DNA of 64,000 bases. Source: Deltaproteobacteria bacterium. Its GTDB lineage: Bacteria; Desulfobacterota; Desulfuromonadia; Desulfuromonadales; JAAYDE01. Each line of letters opens with the position of its first letter. Position 1 is the stretch's first letter. The position numbers and the translations under genes were made by a program. Below are positions 21,392 to 62,004 of this stretch, piece by piece. The notes beneath the pieces were generated by a model. It was not told where the DNA came from. It made no database searches and worked only from the letters and a program-made list of their open reading frames with translations. Location of the stretch: the NCBI GenBank assembly GCA_012729375.1, contig JAAYDE010000073.1, positions 18,763 through 82,762 of the forward strand, read 5' to 3'.

Positions 21392-22126
21392 TTAGGGGTC
21401 ATGCCGATGGGGAAGGGATCCGTGGGGATGGGCGTGAAAGTGACGATGAAGGGTTATTTTCTCATCGCCGCAGATTTGTCCGTCAGTCATGGCATAGACA
21501 GCCCGCACCGATTTTTCCAGAAAATCGTACTCATGGGAAATGATGATATAGGAGATCTTCAGCCCGTTGAGAATCCGCAGAAAATTATTCCTGGTTGTTT
21601 CGTCAAGACCGTTGGTCGGTTCATCCAGCAGAAGCACTTCCGGTTCCATGGACAGCAAGGTCGCCAGCGACACCAACTTTTTTTCGCCTCCCGAAAGACG
21701 GTGGATAAGCCGCCCTTCAAAACCCGCCAGGCCCAGATCCTTCAGGGTCCGCATGGCGATTCGGCGTGCTTCGGCCGGCGTTTTACCGAGATTCAGGGGG
21801 CCGAAAGCGACATCCTCCAAAACCGTGGGGGAAAAAAGCTGGTCGTCGGCATCCTGAAAAAGCAGGCCGATGCGACGCCGGGCGACGACAAAATCCTCCT
21901 CGGTCGCAAGACGGCGGCCGAAGGCCTCGATATGCCCGCGGGATGGTTTCAGAAGCCCCACGATCAGATGGAAAAACGTCGTCTTGCCGGACCCGTTCAG
22001 CCCGGTCAGGCCCAGCCGGTCCCCTTCTCTGAGTTCGAAGTCAAGGCCCTTGAGAACCGGGACACCGCCGGGGTAGGAAAAATGGATATCGGACAGCTTT
22101 AGAAGCAAACCAGGTTCGTCAGCCAT
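21392..22126 (-). CDS. nikO: ECF transporter ATPase, NikO/CbiO
   Basis: GLNGSGKTT Walker A, LSGGEKKLVSLA signature, LLLDEPT Walker B, and a His-rich tail HRHFHAHPHGSLPHRHDP. The track ORF extends to 22690 in a frame overlapping nikQ, so the internal ATG 22126 was chosen. Confidence 0.85.
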   Translation of the reverse strand: MADEPGLLLKLSDIHFSYPGGVPVLKGLDFELREGDRLGLTGLNGSGKTTFFHLIVGLLKPSRGHIEAFGRRLATEEDFVVARRRIGLLFQDADDQLFSPTVLEDVAFGPLNLGKTPAEARRIAMRTLKDLGLAGFEGRLIHRLSGGEKKLVSLATLLSMEPEVLLLDEPTNGLDETTRNNFLRILNGLKISYIIISHEYDFLEKSVRAVYAMTDGQICGDEKITLHRHFHAHPHGSLPHRHDP

Positions 22127-22866
22127 GGCCAAGTCGACACCACCCCCGGCGGAATGAACAGAGCCACCGCCCAAAACCAATCCGCTCTGCGGAAGCGCAT
22201 CTCCTCCAGCGCCGGAAACCGTCCCCGAAACCCACGGCAAATCATGGCCCGGTGCACCTGGTCGGCCCGCAACGAGGCTCTCAGAAAGAGCATGCCAACC
22301 AGGTAGGCGTAAGTGCGGTAGGTGTGGAGGTCGGTCCGCGGTTGAAAGGAACGCAACCGGACCATCCTCTCCAGGCGGTGGTATTCCTGTTCCAGAACAA
22401 AGATGTAACGATAGCAGAAAAGGAGAATGTATACCAGTTTTTCCGGAAAATGAAAACGGTAAAGGACCTGTCCGATGACACCGATGGGAAGGGGCCCGAC
22501 AAAAACGGCAAGGACGACAAGAATGGCTGTGGCCTTGAGGGTGACCATCCCGGCAAGCTGGAAACCGGCGGCGGTGAAAGAAATCGGTCCCAGGGCGAAG
22601 AGCGGCCGGCCGGCAACGGTCAAGGGCAGGACGACCCACAGAAAAAGGATGAAAAGATATGCCGGCAGGAGCCTGCGCGCCACCTGCCAAAGGCCGGGTT
22701 TGGTGGCAGCCAGGATCATCCCGGAAAAACCGAGGCCCGCCCAGAGGGCCGGCCAGCGGGCAGACAAAGCGACGGCAAAGGAGAAAAGGACGGCAAAGAG
22801 GACTTTCAGGCGCGGATCGATCCTCTTGACAGGGCCGTCGGGAATGACAAGGGGTTCAGGGATCAC
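22099..22866 (-). CDS. nikQ: ECF transporter transmembrane (T) component, NikQ/CbiQ
   Basis: RIDPRLKVLFAVLF start and polytopic character. ...RSF...R motif region (ERMVRLRSFQPR). Confidence 0.85.
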   Translation of the reverse strand: MIPEPLVIPDGPVKRIDPRLKVLFAVLFSFAVALSARWPALWAGLGFSGMILAATKPGLWQVARRLLPAYLFILFLWVVLPLTVAGRPLFALGPISFTAAGFQLAGMVTLKATAILVVLAVFVGPLPIGVIGQVLYRFHFPEKLVYILLFCYRYIFVLEQEYHRLERMVRLRSFQPRTDLHTYRTYAYLVGMLFLRASLRADQVHRAMICRGFRGRFPALEEMRFRRADWFWAVALFIPPGVVSTWPWLTNLVCF

Positions 22867-22884
22867 GGCGGATTGCCCCGGAGA

Positions 22885-23493
22885 TCATTTCTTGCGGTAA
22901 CGGAAGTAGGCGGCGGCTCCCATCAAGCCGAGGATGTAGCCGACACCGCCGACAACATCCCGCAGGCCGGGGGCTGGGTCGCGCAGCTCCACCAGGGCGC
23001 GCTCGATGGGTTGAAGACGGCGCTCGAGCAGGGCATCGACCAGCTTTTCCAGCTCCTTGCCCGCCTCGCCGGAAAGGTTTGTCAGCGCGGCAGCATGGGC
23101 ATAGTCGTCACCCGCAGCCGCCGGCGCCTCCCGGGTCGGCTGGGCGTGGCCCAGTTCGGCGGCGGTCACCAGCCACTCGGCCCGATGGCCCATAGACGCG
23201 TCGAGAACAATCCTGAGATCCGTAACCGCCGGAACGGCAAAGGAAAAGAGCCCGCCGTCGTCGGTTTTCCCGGTCACCAATGGGTTCCCCTCCCCGGCGT
23301 AAACGGCCACCGCCCCCCCCTTGACGGGTTTGTTGTTGGAAAACTTGCTTGCGGTGTGAATGCTCTCTGCCTCCACCCAGGCAAAGATGGTCACCCGGTG
23401 GGCCGCAACCGGGGACGAAAAAAAGAGGAAAGCGAGGAACAGAACTCCGCCCATCCGGAATTTTGAGCCGATGGAGAACCGTGCCAACTTCAT
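22885..23493 (-). CDS. NikL-like accessory membrane protein (signal/TM, beta-rich periplasmic domain, C-terminal TM)
   Basis: The ATG overlaps the nikM stop (ATGA). The predicted mature N-terminus is HRVTIFAWVE. The C-terminal anchor is VVGGVGYILGLMGAAAYFRYRKK. The NikL assignment rests on position in a Nik(K)MLQO-type operon. Confidence 0.55.
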   Translation of the reverse strand: MKLARFSIGSKFRMGGVLFLAFLFFSSPVAAHRVTIFAWVEAESIHTASKFSNNKPVKGGAVAVYAGEGNPLVTGKTDDGGLFSFAVPAVTDLRIVLDASMGHRAEWLVTAAELGHAQPTREAPAAAGDDYAHAAALTNLSGEAGKELEKLVDALLERRLQPIERALVELRDPAPGLRDVVGGVGYILGLMGAAAYFRYRKK

Positions 23494-24104
23494 GTGGGTC
23501 GACCTTTTCGAAAGAAAGGAAGCAAAGAAGGTTGGACCCTGTTCAGAAAGGAGACGCAGAAAGCGGTGATGATGCCTTCGATGATCATGACCGGAAAGTG
23601 GGCCGCAACCAACAGTGAAGCCGCTTTCAGAAAATGTCCGTTGCTCAGGACCAGGGCCAGGGCGGCCAGGAGGGCGGCGAAAAGAACAGACAACGCACCG
23701 CCGGCAAAAGCCGCGCCCCAGAGTGGCATGCGCAGATTCAGGGCCCCACGCACCAAATAGTAACAGATCACGGCGGGCAGAGCCATGATGAGGGTGTTGA
23801 CCCCGAGCACGGCAAGGCCGCCGAATTGAAACAGCACCGCTTGCAAAGTCAAGGCCGTCAAAATAGCCGGAAAAGCGCCCCATCCCAGGAGCAGGCCGAC
23901 CATTCCATTGAGAATCAGATGCACGTTGCCGGGGCCTAAAGGAACATGAATCAGGGACGCGACGAAAAAAGAAGCGGCGAGGATTCCCGCCCGGCCGGTT
24001 TCTTCCAGGGAAAGCCTTTTCAGTCCCAGCGCCGTGGCGGCCACGGTCAAAGCCAGGCCGGAAACAAGAACAGGAGCGCTGAGAACGCCTTCCGAAATAT
24101 GCAT
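23490..24104 (-). CDS. nikM: ECF substrate-capture component NikM/CbiM
   Basis: The N-terminus MHISEGVL carries the Met-His metal-binding N-terminus characteristic of CbiM/NikM. 204 aa polytopic protein. Confidence 0.88.
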   Translation of the reverse strand: MHISEGVLSAPVLVSGLALTVAATALGLKRLSLEETGRAGILAASFFVASLIHVPLGPGNVHLILNGMVGLLLGWGAFPAILTALTLQAVLFQFGGLAVLGVNTLIMALPAVICYYLVRGALNLRMPLWGAAFAGGALSVLFAALLAALALVLSNGHFLKAASLLVAAHFPVMIIEGIITAFCVSFLNRVQPSLLPFFRKGRPT

Positions 24105-33077: not shown

Positions 33078-33107
33078 TTGACAACCGGTTGTCCGGGATT
33101 GTATATT
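33078..33107 (+). promoter_or_regulatory. Sigma70-type promoter of the cbi operon
   Basis: TTGACA (33078..33083), 18 nt spacer, TATATT (33102..33107). Confidence 0.6.
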
Positions 33108-33111
33108 TCCT

Positions 33112-33320
33112 CCGTACGAGTTCCCGTTTTCGGGATTGATAGGGAAGACGGTGAGAATCCGTCGCGGACCCGCCGCCGTAACCGGAGACGAACCCCGCAA
33201 CAGCCACTGTCCCTTGCCGGGTGCAGGAAAAAGATCTTTTCCGCAGCCCTTTGGGGATGGGAAGGCGCGGCCAGTAGGATGACCCGGAAGCCGGAAGACC
33301 TGCTCGGATTGATGACATTG
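33112..33320 (+). promoter_or_regulatory. Cobalamin riboswitch (aptamer) no. 1
   Basis: Conserved elements TAGGGAAGACGGTGAGAATCCGTC, B12 box AGCCACTGTCCC, GGGAAGGCG and CCGGAAGACCTGC. Confidence 0.88.
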
Positions 33321-33366
33321 GCATTCTCCCCGGGTTTCGGGAGGATCTGTCATGGGACGAAAATCG

Positions 33367-48755: not shown

Positions 48756-48784
48756 TTGACAACCCCCCTGTCATCCTCTTAAAT
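48756..48784 (+). promoter_or_regulatory. Sigma70-type promoter of the second riboswitch-controlled operon
   Basis: TTGACA (48756..48761), 17 nt spacer, TTAAAT (48779..48784). Confidence 0.55.
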
Positions 48785-48789
48785 GGCTG

Positions 48790-48985
48790 GGTCAACGGTG
48801 CTTGCAAAGCTCAATAGGGAATCCCGTGGAAATCGGGAGCGGTCCCGCCGCTGTGAGCCCCCCCTTGGAGGAAAACGCAAGGGAGCATGGTGCCGGCCAA
48901 GTACGCCACTGAAGAGACTTCAGCCTCTTCGGGAAGGTTGCCGGCAGCAGGGGCAAGCCAGAAGACCTGCCTTGACGATAGCCGT
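48790..48985 (+). promoter_or_regulatory. Cobalamin riboswitch (aptamer) no. 2
   Basis: AATAGGGAATCCCGTGGAAATCGGGAGCGGTCCCGCC, B12 box CGCCACTG, GGGAAGGT and AGCCAGAAGACCTGCC. Confidence 0.88.
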
Positions 48986-49040
48986 CCTTCTGCGGGAAAC
49001 AGCAAGGGGCAAAACAGCGAGGGCCAAGAAAACTGGGTGC

Positions 49041-59641: not shown

Positions 59642-60556
59642 ATGTCCGTCTTCCCTGTAGCGATTGCCTTTCTCCTTCTGCTGCTGACCCCCGGCGACCT
59701 GTGGGCCTGGGGAATGGGCGTCCACCTCCAGGTAGGGTCGGAAATCCTCGCCAGTCTGGGGGTGCTCCCGCCCCTGGCGGCGGATGTGATCGGCCGTTTC
59801 TCCTTTGACTTTCTCTACGGCTGCATCAGCGCCGACATCACCATCGGCAAGAAATTCACCCATCATCTCCATCACTGCCATTCCTGGCGGGTCGGCCAAA
59901 AGATTCTCGATGCCGCCGACAGCGAGCCCCGCATGGCCTGCGCCCTGGGCTACCTGGCACACCTGGGAGCGGATACCATCGGTCACTCCTTTTTCGTTCC
60001 CTACAAAATGGTCCGCTCCTACAACACCCCCTTGCTCCGCCATACCTATTGGGAAATGAGGCTGGAAGCGATGGTCGACCCGACGGTGTGGAAGGTGGCC
60101 CAGGAGATCTCGCGGCGGGATTTCCGCGAAAACGACGCCATGATGCAGAGGGTGATCGCCGAGACCATTTTTTCGTTCAAAACCAACAAACAGATATTCA
60201 ACTCCCTGCTCCTGTTGAGCCGCCTGCGCCAGTGGCGGCGGGTGCTTCTCTCCCATTCCTATGTCAGCAAATGGACCATCAGCGAAGAAGATGCCCTGGA
60301 ATATCTCAGCCTGGCCAGGGAAGCCGCCCTCGACGTCCTCGTCCGCAAGGAGGAAAGTCCCTATTGGAAGGCCGATCCGACGGGAGAACGGGCGCTCCAG
60401 GCAGCCAAAATGATCCGCCGCAACCTCAACTCCCTGTGGCTGGACGGCAAACTGCCGCCCCGCGAGGCTCTGGAAATCATTCGCGAGCTGAAGGGGAAAT
60501 TCCGCGACGGGATCACCCAGCCCGACAAGCTCCTGGAACTGCTCTCGGCCGAGTGA
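59642..60556 (+). CDS. Zinc-dependent phospholipase C-like family protein with signal peptide
   Basis: Signal peptide, then WAWGMGVHLQVG, with His-rich motifs HHLHHCHSW and YLAHLGADTIGH. Confidence 0.6.
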   Translation: MSVFPVAIAFLLLLLTPGDLWAWGMGVHLQVGSEILASLGVLPPLAADVIGRFSFDFLYGCISADITIGKKFTHHLHHCHSWRVGQKILDAADSEPRMACALGYLAHLGADTIGHSFFVPYKMVRSYNTPLLRHTYWEMRLEAMVDPTVWKVAQEISRRDFRENDAMMQRVIAETIFSFKTNKQIFNSLLLLSRLRQWRRVLLSHSYVSKWTISEEDALEYLSLAREAALDVLVRKEESPYWKADPTGERALQAAKMIRRNLNSLWLDGKLPPREALEIIRELKGKFRDGITQPDKLLELLSAE

Positions 60557-60558
60557 GG

Positions 60559-60661
60559 CTGGTGACTGGTGACTGGTGACTGGTGACTGGTGACTGGTGA
60601 CTGGTGACTGGTGACTGGTGACTGGTGACTGGTGACTGGTGACTGGTGACTGGTGACTGGT
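60559..60661. repeat. Perfect heptanucleotide tandem repeat (CTGGTGA) x14 plus a 5-nt partial copy
   Basis: Counted directly: units begin at 60559 and every 7 nt through 60650, and a partial CTGGT follows at 60657. Starts 2 nt after the TGA of the PLC-like gene and lies 120 nt from the coaBC stop. Confidence 0.97.
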
Positions 60662-60780
60662 AAGTATAATTCAATGGCGGAAACGGGCATAACAAAAAAC
60701 AGTGATTTGTTCCCTTTCTATCGGGCTTTCATGCGCTGCGCCATGACCCTGCGCCGGGTTGCGAAGGGTGAGTGCCCTTG

Positions 60781-62004
60781 TCAGCGTCTGCGTTCGGCCG
60801 CGACCCGGTCGAGGATGCGCTCGGCCACCTGTTCTTTGGGCAGGCAGGGAAGGGTTTCGCAGTCGCCGTCGGCGGACAGCAGGGTGACGATGTTGGTGTC
60901 GGCGCCGAAACCGGCTTCGGGCCTGGTGATGTCATTGGCAACCACGAGGTCGAGGTTCTTGGCGGCCAGTTTGCGGCGGGCGTTTTCCAGAAGATTTTCC
61001 GATTCGGCGGCAAAGCCGATAACCAGCCGTCCCCCTTTGTTCCGTCCTATCTCGGCCAGGATGTCCAGGGTCTTCTCCAAACGCAGGGTGAGCCCCTCCG
61101 TCTCTTCCTTTTTCAGCTTGCGGGAAAAAGGCTCCGCCACCCGGAAATCGGCCACCGCCGCCGCCATGATGACCACAGAAACTTCGGCAAGACGGCCGAG
61201 TACGGCCTGACGCATCTCCTCGGCGCTGACCACGGGAACGAACTCCACTCCGGCCGGCGCCGGCAGACTGGTCGGCCCCGCCACCAGGATCGTCCGCGCC
61301 CCCCGCAGCCGAGCGATCCGGGCCAGGGCAAAGCCCATTTTCCCCGAAGAGAAATTGCCGATGAAGCGCGCCGGATCGATCTTTTCCACCGTCGGCCCGG
61401 CGCTGACCAGCACCGTCTCCCCGAGCAAATCACGGTCATGGAGCAGGCCCTCGATCTCAGCGAAAATCCGCTGGGGATCGGGGAACTTCCCCTGCCCTTC
61501 GGTGCCGCAGGCCAGGGCTCCGGTATCCGGCTCCAGAATGCGGCGCCCCAAGCCGGCCAGCTTGCGCAGATTCTCCTGGAGAATCGGATTCTCCCACATA
61601 TTGACATTCATCGCCGGAACGAACAGAACCGGCGCCCTGGTCGCCATCAGGGTGGTGGAGAGGAGATCGTCGGCGATGCCGCAGGCCGCTTTGCCGATCA
61701 GGTTGGCGGTGGCCGGAGCGATGACGAAGAGGTCGGCCCTTTCGGCCAGGGAGATGTGGCCGATATCCTGCTCACGGATGAGATCGAAAAGATCGCTGTG
61801 CACCGGCCGCCGGGAGAGGGTCTGGAAGGTCAGCGGGGTCACGAACCGGCGGGCGTTTTCGGTCATCACCACAAAGACCTCGGCCCCCGCTTTGGTCAGC
61901 AGGCGAAGCAGTTCCACCGCCTTGTAGACGGCAATGCCGCCGCACACGCCGAGAACGATCTTTTTCCCATCCAGACTACCGGCATTCTCCTTAAGGCAGT
62001 TCAT
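60781..62004 (-). CDS. coaBC: Bifunctional phosphopantothenoylcysteine decarboxylase / phosphopantothenate--cysteine ligase
   Basis: KIVLGVCGGIAVYK, PAMNVNMW, VSAGPTVEKIDPARFIGNFSSGKMG. Confidence 0.92.
   Translation of the reverse strand: MNCLKENAGSLDGKKIVLGVCGGIAVYKAVELLRLLTKAGAEVFVVMTENARRFVTPLTFQTLSRRPVHSDLFDLIREQDIGHISLAERADLFVIAPATANLIGKAACGIADDLLSTTLMATRAPVLFVPAMNVNMWENPILQENLRKLAGLGRRILEPDTGALACGTEGQGKFPDPQRIFAEIEGLLHDRDLLGETVLVSAGPTVEKIDPARFIGNFSSGKMGFALARIARLRGARTILVAGPTSLPAPAGVEFVPVVSAEEMRQAVLGRLAEVSVVIMAAAVADFRVAEPFSRKLKKEETEGLTLRLEKTLDILAEIGRNKGGRLVIGFAAESENLLENARRKLAAKNLDLVVANDITRPEAGFGADTNIVTLLSADGDCETLPCLPKEQVAERILDRVAAERRR

Follow-up and report, generated by a model that had tools for sequence, protein, structure and literature searches.

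A length-variable CTGGTGA array between the convergent 3' ends of a phospholipase C-family gene and coaBC is probably a near-neutral, slippage-driven microsatellite

Does a long and error-free array of a 7-bp unit, lodged between the converging ends of two genes, serve the bacterium that carries it, or is it simply tolerated there? The question is raised by positions 60559-60661 of the window (the whole 64-kb stretch of DNA that was analysed), where the raw sequence reads as 14 uninterrupted CTGGTGA units followed by CTGGT. Tandem Repeats Finder reports a period of 7, 14.7 copies, 100% matches, 0 indels, and the consensus CTGGTGA over the same interval, confirming the original prediction of a perfect 14-fold repeat with a partial unit. 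The tract is the only long array that this program finds within the window, and the two-unit pattern CTGGTGACTGGTGA, searched with up to 2 mismatches, returns 15 matches, 14 of them inside the tract, against 0.29 expected from shuffles. Head-to-tail copies of the unit are thus far above chance, as in the long SSR/VNTR class with units of 5-11 nt. As a separate observation, the window outside the tract contains 19 single CTGGTGA/TCACCAG heptamers, against about 6 expected from shuffles; this excess probably originates from CTG-GTG codon pairs and not from a dispersed motif.

The tract follows the stop codon of the PLC-family gene (TGA, 60554-60556) at a distance of 2 nt, filled by GG, and lies within the 224-nt convergent spacer of this gene and coaBC (Table 1), precisely where it had been placed at first, in the 3' region shared by the two. 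The TGA in every unit closes 3/3 frames of the + strand and the - strand of the tract is stop-free, again in agreement with the earlier description. The second G before the tract is polymorphic in the population, with two contigs (L136 and L142) reading GAGTGAGA-CTGGTGA vs GAGTGAGG-CTGGTGA, and the A allele at 60558 lengthens the periodic register of the tract by two bases. The remainder of the spacer, beyond the tract, is common to the repeat-bearing sister species (L130/L143) and missing in more distant relatives, as seen by alignment.

Table 1. Features at and around the heptanucleotide tract, with positions in the window
Feature	Position	Strand	Basis and remarks
Zn-dependent phospholipase C (PLC) family gene, 304 aa	59642..60556	+	Pfam PF00882 Zn_dep_PLPC, E = 1.1e-20; = NLV24522.1
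GG dinucleotide between stop codon and tract	60557..60558	+	60558 G/A polymorphic in the population
Heptanucleotide array, (CTGGTGA)x14 + CTGGT	60559..60661	.	Tandem Repeats Finder; spanned alleles of 8, 9, 12, 14, and 18 units
Remainder of the convergent spacer, non-repetitive, single-copy, 119 nt	60662..60780	.	Alignment and BLAST
Degenerate homologue of the coaBC intrinsic terminator, between coaBC and tract	60691..60719	-	Alignment to sister species
coaBC (phosphopantothenoylcysteine decarboxylase / phosphopantothenate-cysteine ligase)	60781..62004	-	PF04127, E = 1e-68; PF02441, E = 1e-36; = NLV24523.1

The products of the two flanking genes (NLV24522 and NLV24523, the latter being CoaBC) and a neighbouring HD-domain protein (NLV24525) are exact matches to a MAG named 'Deltaproteobacteria bacterium', and the nearest named homologues of the PLC-family protein belong to Desulfuromonadaceae MAGs (84%) and to Desulfuromonas species (~60%). 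By these protein matches, the host is an uncultured, Desulfuromonas-like organism that recurs across several metagenome projects. The best start of the PLC-family gene is at 59642, and 311-aa variants of its product differ solely in the called start codon at the N-terminus, which eliminates a slippage-driven C-terminal extension of the protein as a candidate consequence of the repeat.

The exact CoaBC and PLC-family proteins are encoded by dozens of metagenome contigs, and more than 15 independent contigs carry the CTGGTGA unit with identical flanks, both sets coming from several projects and assemblers, so that the tract itself is no assembly artefact. Its length varies. In contigs that include the entire tract together with its two intact flanks, there are 8 (L004), 9 (L138), 12 (L006), and 18 (L001, the same as L133) perfect units, next to the 14 perfect units of the window; the flanks of the 12-, 14-, and 18-unit alleles are more than 99.9% identical, and the alleles of 8 and 9 units are less certain. 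Specifically, the 18-unit contig L001 and the window differ by 2 mismatches in 9,220 aligned nt, the tract being the sole gap, and an alignment of four sequences contains 4 segregating sites in 3,865 ungapped columns, with 70/70 gap columns inside the tract. Because so few columns segregate while all gaps fall within the tract, its length has changed about 10^3 times as often as a single site has undergone base substitution. Differences of whole units between near-identical flanks, as read from short-read assemblies, are those of a VNTR. Two options of the original prediction, a hypervariable VNTR and a recent slipped-strand expansion, are both backed by copy numbers that differ among near-identical strains and between two contigs of the sister species.

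All these copy numbers derive from short-read de Bruijn assemblies, and a tandem array forms a cycle in the de Bruijn graph, which explains why contigs break at k-1 repeat bases: Logan contigs (k = 31) end after 30 repeat bases, a SPAdes contig (k = 55) after 54, and MEGAHIT contigs (k = 59 stage) after 58, and contigs broken in this manner provide lower bounds on copy number only. The tract is a systematic and reproducible break point in short-read assemblies of the host; the contigs that end in it are L002, L003, L005, L007, L008, L129, L134-L137, L139, L140, and L142. Moreover, the 8-unit SPAdes allele (61 nt), which may be collapsed, and the 18-unit allele (131 nt) have the maximum lengths that can be resolved at k = 55 and k = 127, respectively. 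The many ends at exactly 30, 54, or 58 nt and these two maximal alleles are what would be expected if the whole copy-number variation were an artefact of one allele too long for the assemblers. However, the 12-unit allele of the k141 MEGAHIT contig L006 does not coincide with a resolution limit, and in the sister species two alleles much shorter than any k, one of 1.7 units (12 nt) and one of 4.7 units (33 nt), are nonetheless distinct. In addition, the k127 contigs L002, L134, and L135 stop on both sides at 17 units plus CTGGT, that is, at 124 nt and not at the 126 nt that k-1 would give, as a mixture predicts; this break appears to be a branch point, where a 17-unit allele and an allele of at least 18 units coexist in one sample. 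On these three grounds, the polymorphism can be regarded as real, the exact allele spectrum being less sure, and a pure assembly artefact is quite improbable. Contig ends within the tract were themselves considered as evidence of heterogeneity and set aside, as most of them reflect the k-1 limit and an allele branch would account only for the 124-nt breaks of the k127 contigs and perhaps for that of L129 (110 nt).

The history of the locus in relatives is consistent with repeated turnover of the array. In the sister species, represented by L143 (GCA_012512925.1) and L130, the PLC-family protein is 84% identical and the gene end reads TGAGG-(CTGGTGG)n-CTGGT-TAGAATAATT..., with n = 4 in L143 and n = 1 in L130; the two contigs are 98.45% identical over 1,807 nt and have (CTGGTGG) at 4.7 vs 1.7 units, at a site orthologous to the tract. 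A further lineage (L146; PLC 80% aa) reads TGAGG-(CTGGTGA), with at least 4 units up to the contig end. Other relatives retain the convergent gene pair without the repeat, with a spacer of 23 nt in L144/L145 (PLC 82% aa), 8 nt in L147 (68%), and 51 nt in L149 (67%), and the same holds for L131 and L132 (58% and 54%). The three repeat-bearing lineages share only about 78-81% DNA identity, and yet within each of them the array has no imperfect unit and is uniform at the seventh base, which is A or G depending on the lineage. Since a divergence of ~20% would have degraded static arrays, each array was, as inferred from this comparison, regenerated or homogenised far more recently than the lineages split, via contraction to 1-2 units and re-expansion, a pattern that corresponds to the classical microsatellite life cycle. 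The locus offers a natural snapshot of that cycle: one species has a polymorphic array that can be as short as 1.7 units, another has perfect arrays of between 8 and at least 18 units, all units of an array share the same variant, and the next relatives have no array at all. Against neutrality, the presence of an array at one exact site in three lineages diverged by ~20% could reflect selective maintenance. A mobile element or MITE carrying the repeat was rejected, as BLAST of the remaining spacer (60662-60780) against the window and all recovered loci returns orthologous copies only.

The most familiar role for a tract of this kind is that of a contingency locus, in which length changes switch an overlapping ORF or promoter on and off. 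Three features would suit such a switch: 7 nt is not divisible by 3, no frame of the - strand is closed and an ATG is available at 60690, and a TATAAT hexamer (60665-60670) lies just past the tract. However, the (SPVTSHQ)n ORFs of the - strand (60361-60690 and 60513-60695) are preceded by no Shine-Dalgarno sequence, extend antisense into the PLC gene, and are without an ATG in the sister species, and the earlier dismissal of the SPVTSHQ frame as an artefact holds. The promoter scan finds no promoter-like site at the tract, its only match in the scanned region being located ~1.1 kb upstream. Because the TATAAT lies after the tract, copy number cannot alter the -35/-10 spacing, and a promoter-spacer switch through this hexamer was discarded, since any -35/-10 pair would be situated wholly downstream of the tract, whose 3' end does not move. 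The array is found 3' of both neighbours and outside any ORF, -35/-10 gap, or 5' region; as had been anticipated, it is not a classical phase-variation switch, and a contingency function is scarcely credible. Over 60300-61000, Rfam yields no match even at E <= 1, and near the tract no family reaches its gathering score.

The option of a terminator-region element fares poorly, in that the terminator scan finds no terminator-like site at the tract and such arrays have no strand preference relative to genes (see below). In the sister species, a canonical - strand coaBC terminator, composed of GAAGGGGACAAATCCCTTC and the T-run GTTTTTTT, is present at the aligned position (L143:1675-1703) between coaBC and the repeat, and the tract therefore belongs to the PLC side. 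The copy of this terminator in the window fails the terminator scan, folds weakly, and has lost the 3' arm of its stem, and coaBC transcription may read into the tract in the window species.

Strand-specific predicted folding is the only physical property of the tract that stands out. The + strand RNA of the tract is computed to fold at -56.7 kcal/mol (z = -12.6) into one long stem with G.G mismatches, in which ACUGGU is self-complementary with two G.U pairs, whereas the - strand RNA is unstructured (-6.2 kcal/mol); as single-stranded DNA, the hairpin-prone strand reaches -11.2 vs 0 kcal/mol for the other. By its predicted energy this is a stable stem-loop, a property shared with REP-like and terminator hairpins; the 64-kb window contains no other copy, in contrast with multicopy REP elements. 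In the native context, predicted stem stability increases linearly with copy number, each added unit contributing about -4.5 kcal/mol, from -52.9 kcal/mol (8 units) to -97.9 kcal/mol (18 units). A long predicted hairpin right after the PLC stop may affect the stability of the mRNA 3' end, which would also speak against neutrality. It can thus be proposed that the tract ends the PLC mRNA as a G.U stem-loop, protecting it from 3' exonucleases or replacing a terminator, and that copy number might act as a population-level expression rheostat, by analogy with REP elements or the proposed STRR hairpins. In favour of this proposal, besides the rise of stability with unit number from 8 to 18, the strand asymmetry of folding ranks in the top 2% when all heptamer arrays are compared, the A-to-G change of the sister-species unit keeps the pairing (A-U to G.U), the coaBC terminator of the sister species separates coaBC from the tract and so leaves the latter on the PLC side, the scan finds no other terminator-like site for the PLC-family gene, and STRR arrays are said to form hairpins and possibly to stabilise transcripts (PMC2670836).

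Nevertheless, the hairpin is not exceptional, and a claim to that effect was withdrawn: z-scores against shuffles are misleading for any tandem repeat, and a 14-copy CUGGUGA array stands at the 11th percentile of all 2,340 distinct heptamer arrays and ranks 24th among the 60 units with its base composition, so that a fold of equal or greater stability is reached by ~1 in 9 heptamer arrays. The + strand stem is followed by AAGUAUAAUUCAAU and has no U-tract, and hence is not an intrinsic terminator; moreover, the sister-species contig with 1.7 units cannot form the hairpin, and the PLC gene is truncated in some members of the population.

The distribution of the same unit in other genomes bears both on this proposal and on the singularity of the tract. 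When bacterial and archaeal genomes, one for each species, were surveyed for three CTGGTGA units in tandem, at least 120 DNA stretches were returned, and the initial claim that such a repeat is very unusual for a bacterial chromosome is not supported, given these at least 120 places in genomes of many phyla and the over-representation of heptamers (PMC4692102). The matches listed include cyanobacteria (Capilliphycus, Sphaerospermopsis, Lyngbya, Oscillatoria), Planctomycetota, Acidobacteriota, Bacteroidota, Betaproteobacteria, Geobacter argillaceus, and Dialister; among them, array length reaches ~18 units (L019, Pedobacter, and L047, a betaproteobacterium), and CTGGTGA arrays often adjoin arrays of one-base variants (ACTGGGG, TTGGTGA, GCTGGTG, ACTGGTA). 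Two matches have a composite architecture: L018:4180-4565, on a Capilliphycus salinus chromosome, consists of (ACTGGTG)n blocks with ACTGAAAA-type spacers between them, and L072:440-740, in a Planctomycetota MAG, of alternating GCTGGTG/ACTGGTG blocks with a recurrence of ~91 nt.

Orientation was surveyed in 123 array clusters among the matches listed, with the tract masked before crude ORF calling, and no strand bias of the arrays relative to genes was found in these clusters after masking. Specifically, arrays at gene 3' ends are in the folding orientation in 63 cases and in the non-folding one in 56, and those at 5' ends in 39 and 40 cases, respectively (among the matches listed). An apparent placement downstream of co-directional genes in a first survey (57 vs 24) was rejected as an artefact of ORFs that cross the stop-free strand, and disappeared after masking. 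Gene 3' ends are preferred over 5' ends (119 vs 79) and convergent over divergent spacers (23 vs 11) among the matches listed, a pattern that purifying selection against insertions in promoter regions would leave. The lack of strand bias and the 3'-end preference support the view that most bacterial heptamer SSRs are tolerated by-products of slippage. The nearly even split at gene 3' ends is not what a folding-dependent function would require, and the proposal that the tract ends the PLC mRNA as a tunable hairpin is, with this result added, rather unlikely. The more specific claim that a selected, length-tunable 3'-UTR stem-loop sets PLC-family mRNA stability, or the collision of convergent transcription with coaBC, is decidedly unlikely; if true, it would amount to a graded, heritable, and reversible expression rheostat operated from a gene 3' end, a mode of SSR control not established in bacteria, and the persistence of the array in three lineages diverged by ~20% would be due to selection.

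Known heptamer systems provide a further term of comparison. Among long bacterial SSRs with units of 5-11 nt, heptamers are over-represented and polymerase slippage is the proposed cause (Mrazek et al. 2007, as presented in PMC4692102), and intergenic heptamer arrays are kept between the same genes in related species while their length and sequence vary (PMC4692102). The tract is likewise a perfect head-to-tail 7-nt array, intergenic, length-variable between close relatives, and hosted by a free-living non-pathogenic bacterium; it differs from this class in nothing essential and adds one more locus with a documented population polymorphism. The intergenic heptamers GGGAATC of Xanthomonas and GGGGA(T/C)T of Nostoc, present in dozens per genome, fold into G-quadruplexes (PMC4692102) and have G3-4 runs in their units, whereas CTGGTGA has GG only, short of the run of at least 3 G per unit that such folding calls for. 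Cyanobacterial STRR arrays are intergenic tandem repeats of 7-bp units (PMC2670836). The tract shares with them the period of 7, the intergenic position, and the capacity to form hairpins, and CTGGTGA itself occurs in Capilliphycus, Sphaerospermopsis, Lyngbya, and other cyanobacteria, often beside ACTGGGG arrays (among the matches listed). The STRR units described by Mazel et al. in 1990 are reportedly CCCCAGT, TTGGTCA, and CAACAGT, and the reverse strand of the CTGGTGA unit, CACCAGT, is one mismatch from two of them. However, STRRs are dispersed, many-copy families of filamentous cyanobacteria; here, one array was found in the 64 kb analysed of a deltaproteobacterial MAG, with the unit CTGGTGA/TCACCAG in place of a canonical STRR unit and a Desulfuromonas-like host.

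Three other heptamer systems have a different anatomy. The 7-bp repeats of Haemophilus influenzae hmw1A/hmw2A, present in 13-38 copies and strain-variable by slippage (as described in PMC2651432, citing Dawid et al. 1999), lie, in that account, ~100 bp upstream of the genes in the promoter region and modulate expression, while the tract is 3' of both neighbours. The TAACTGA repeats of marine Beggiatoaceae, cyanobacteria, and Bacteroidetes occur mostly in 2-6 copies a few nt upstream of start codons, in ~170 sets per genome (PMC4679880); like CTGGTGA, they are TGA-containing direct heptamer repeats with a patchy distribution over distant phyla, but their RNA is predicted to be unstructured (0 kcal/mol), unlike that of the tract. 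The heptanucleotide elements of Geobacter metallireducens, GGGACCG x4 and MTYCTGA x5, have a fixed number of 4-5 units within longer conserved elements, 16-49 per genome (PMC2700814), and share with the tract the Desulfuromonadales lineage and the intergenic, tandem heptamer arrangement without being expandable pure arrays. None of these three anatomies matches a pure, expandable array located 3' of both genes.

The Geobacter elements and the TAACTGA repeats of Beggiatoaceae are also the proposed precedents for a protein-binding or chromosome-structuring array, in which the 14 repeats would act, by analogy, as an iterated site for a DNA- or RNA-binding protein. The identity of the iterated sites, the annotation of heptanucleotide 'global regulatory' elements in Desulfuromonadales (PMC2700814), and the excess of single heptamers elsewhere in the window would be compatible with this role; yet that excess is plausibly explained by codon pairs, only one array exists in 64 kb, and both the Geobacter elements (fixed units, many copies) and the TAACTGA repeats (upstream of starts) are built otherwise (PMC2700814, PMC4679880). 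Furthermore, a copy number ranging from 1.7 to at least 18 and the absence in close relatives are unexpected for a binding site, and a 7-bp period sets successive sites on different helical faces. Protein binding, which the original prediction had listed among its options, found no supporting evidence here, strand preference of such arrays included, and is very improbable.

Overall, the tract is real, hypervariable, and still active, and it is probably a hypermutable, near-neutral heptanucleotide microsatellite, driven by slippage, with no dedicated function, and tolerated in a convergent spacer. This reading rests on the copy-number differences among near-identical strains, on the rate and history of change at the site, on the position of the tract outside any ORF, on the lack of a terminator or promoter site at the tract and of an Rfam match, and on the commonness of CTGGTGA arrays, which occur at 120 or more places with no strand bias. 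The array would most likely have originated by slippage from a direct repeat of 1-2 units, and would gain and lose whole 7-bp units by slipped-strand mispairing during replication. A weak, strand-specific hairpin of the G/T-rich strand may stabilise slipped intermediates. In triplet-repeat models, expansion is favoured when the hairpin-prone strand is the nascent lagging strand. The cumulative GC skew of the window falls throughout, and on this basis it may be speculated that the hairpin-prone, G/T-rich strand is the nascent lagging strand here. The tract would persist since a change of length costs nothing between two convergent 3' ends, its effects on fitness being presumably negligible. What is new is one more heptamer locus with population polymorphism; heptamers were already known as the favoured long repeats of free-living bacteria, and the locus points to no new mechanism. 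In practical terms, the tract is a strain-level marker, with alleles that differ between samples whose flanking kilobases are nearly identical.

Some further observations concern the surroundings of the tract. In contig L129, the PLC-family gene is otherwise 99% identical but has 7 substitutions clustered in ~26 nt (L129:2480-2539, corresponding to 60242-60301 of the window); through one of them a TAA stop arises, and the gene is truncated at residue 215; an independent ENA contig encodes a similar 215-aa product (truncated proteins P0007 and P0009). The cluster could be a patch of local recombination or hypermutation, or could mark the pseudogenisation of the gene adjoining the tract. Farther away, the window contains two full-length cobalamin riboswitches on the + strand (33101-33321 and 48779-48988; 115 and 86 bits), which bracket a G+C-rich block at ~34-48 kb (about 0.65-0.68 vs 0.55-0.62 elsewhere). 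Lastly, one 2-kb bin of the window (22001-24000) has an unusually high AT skew of +0.30.
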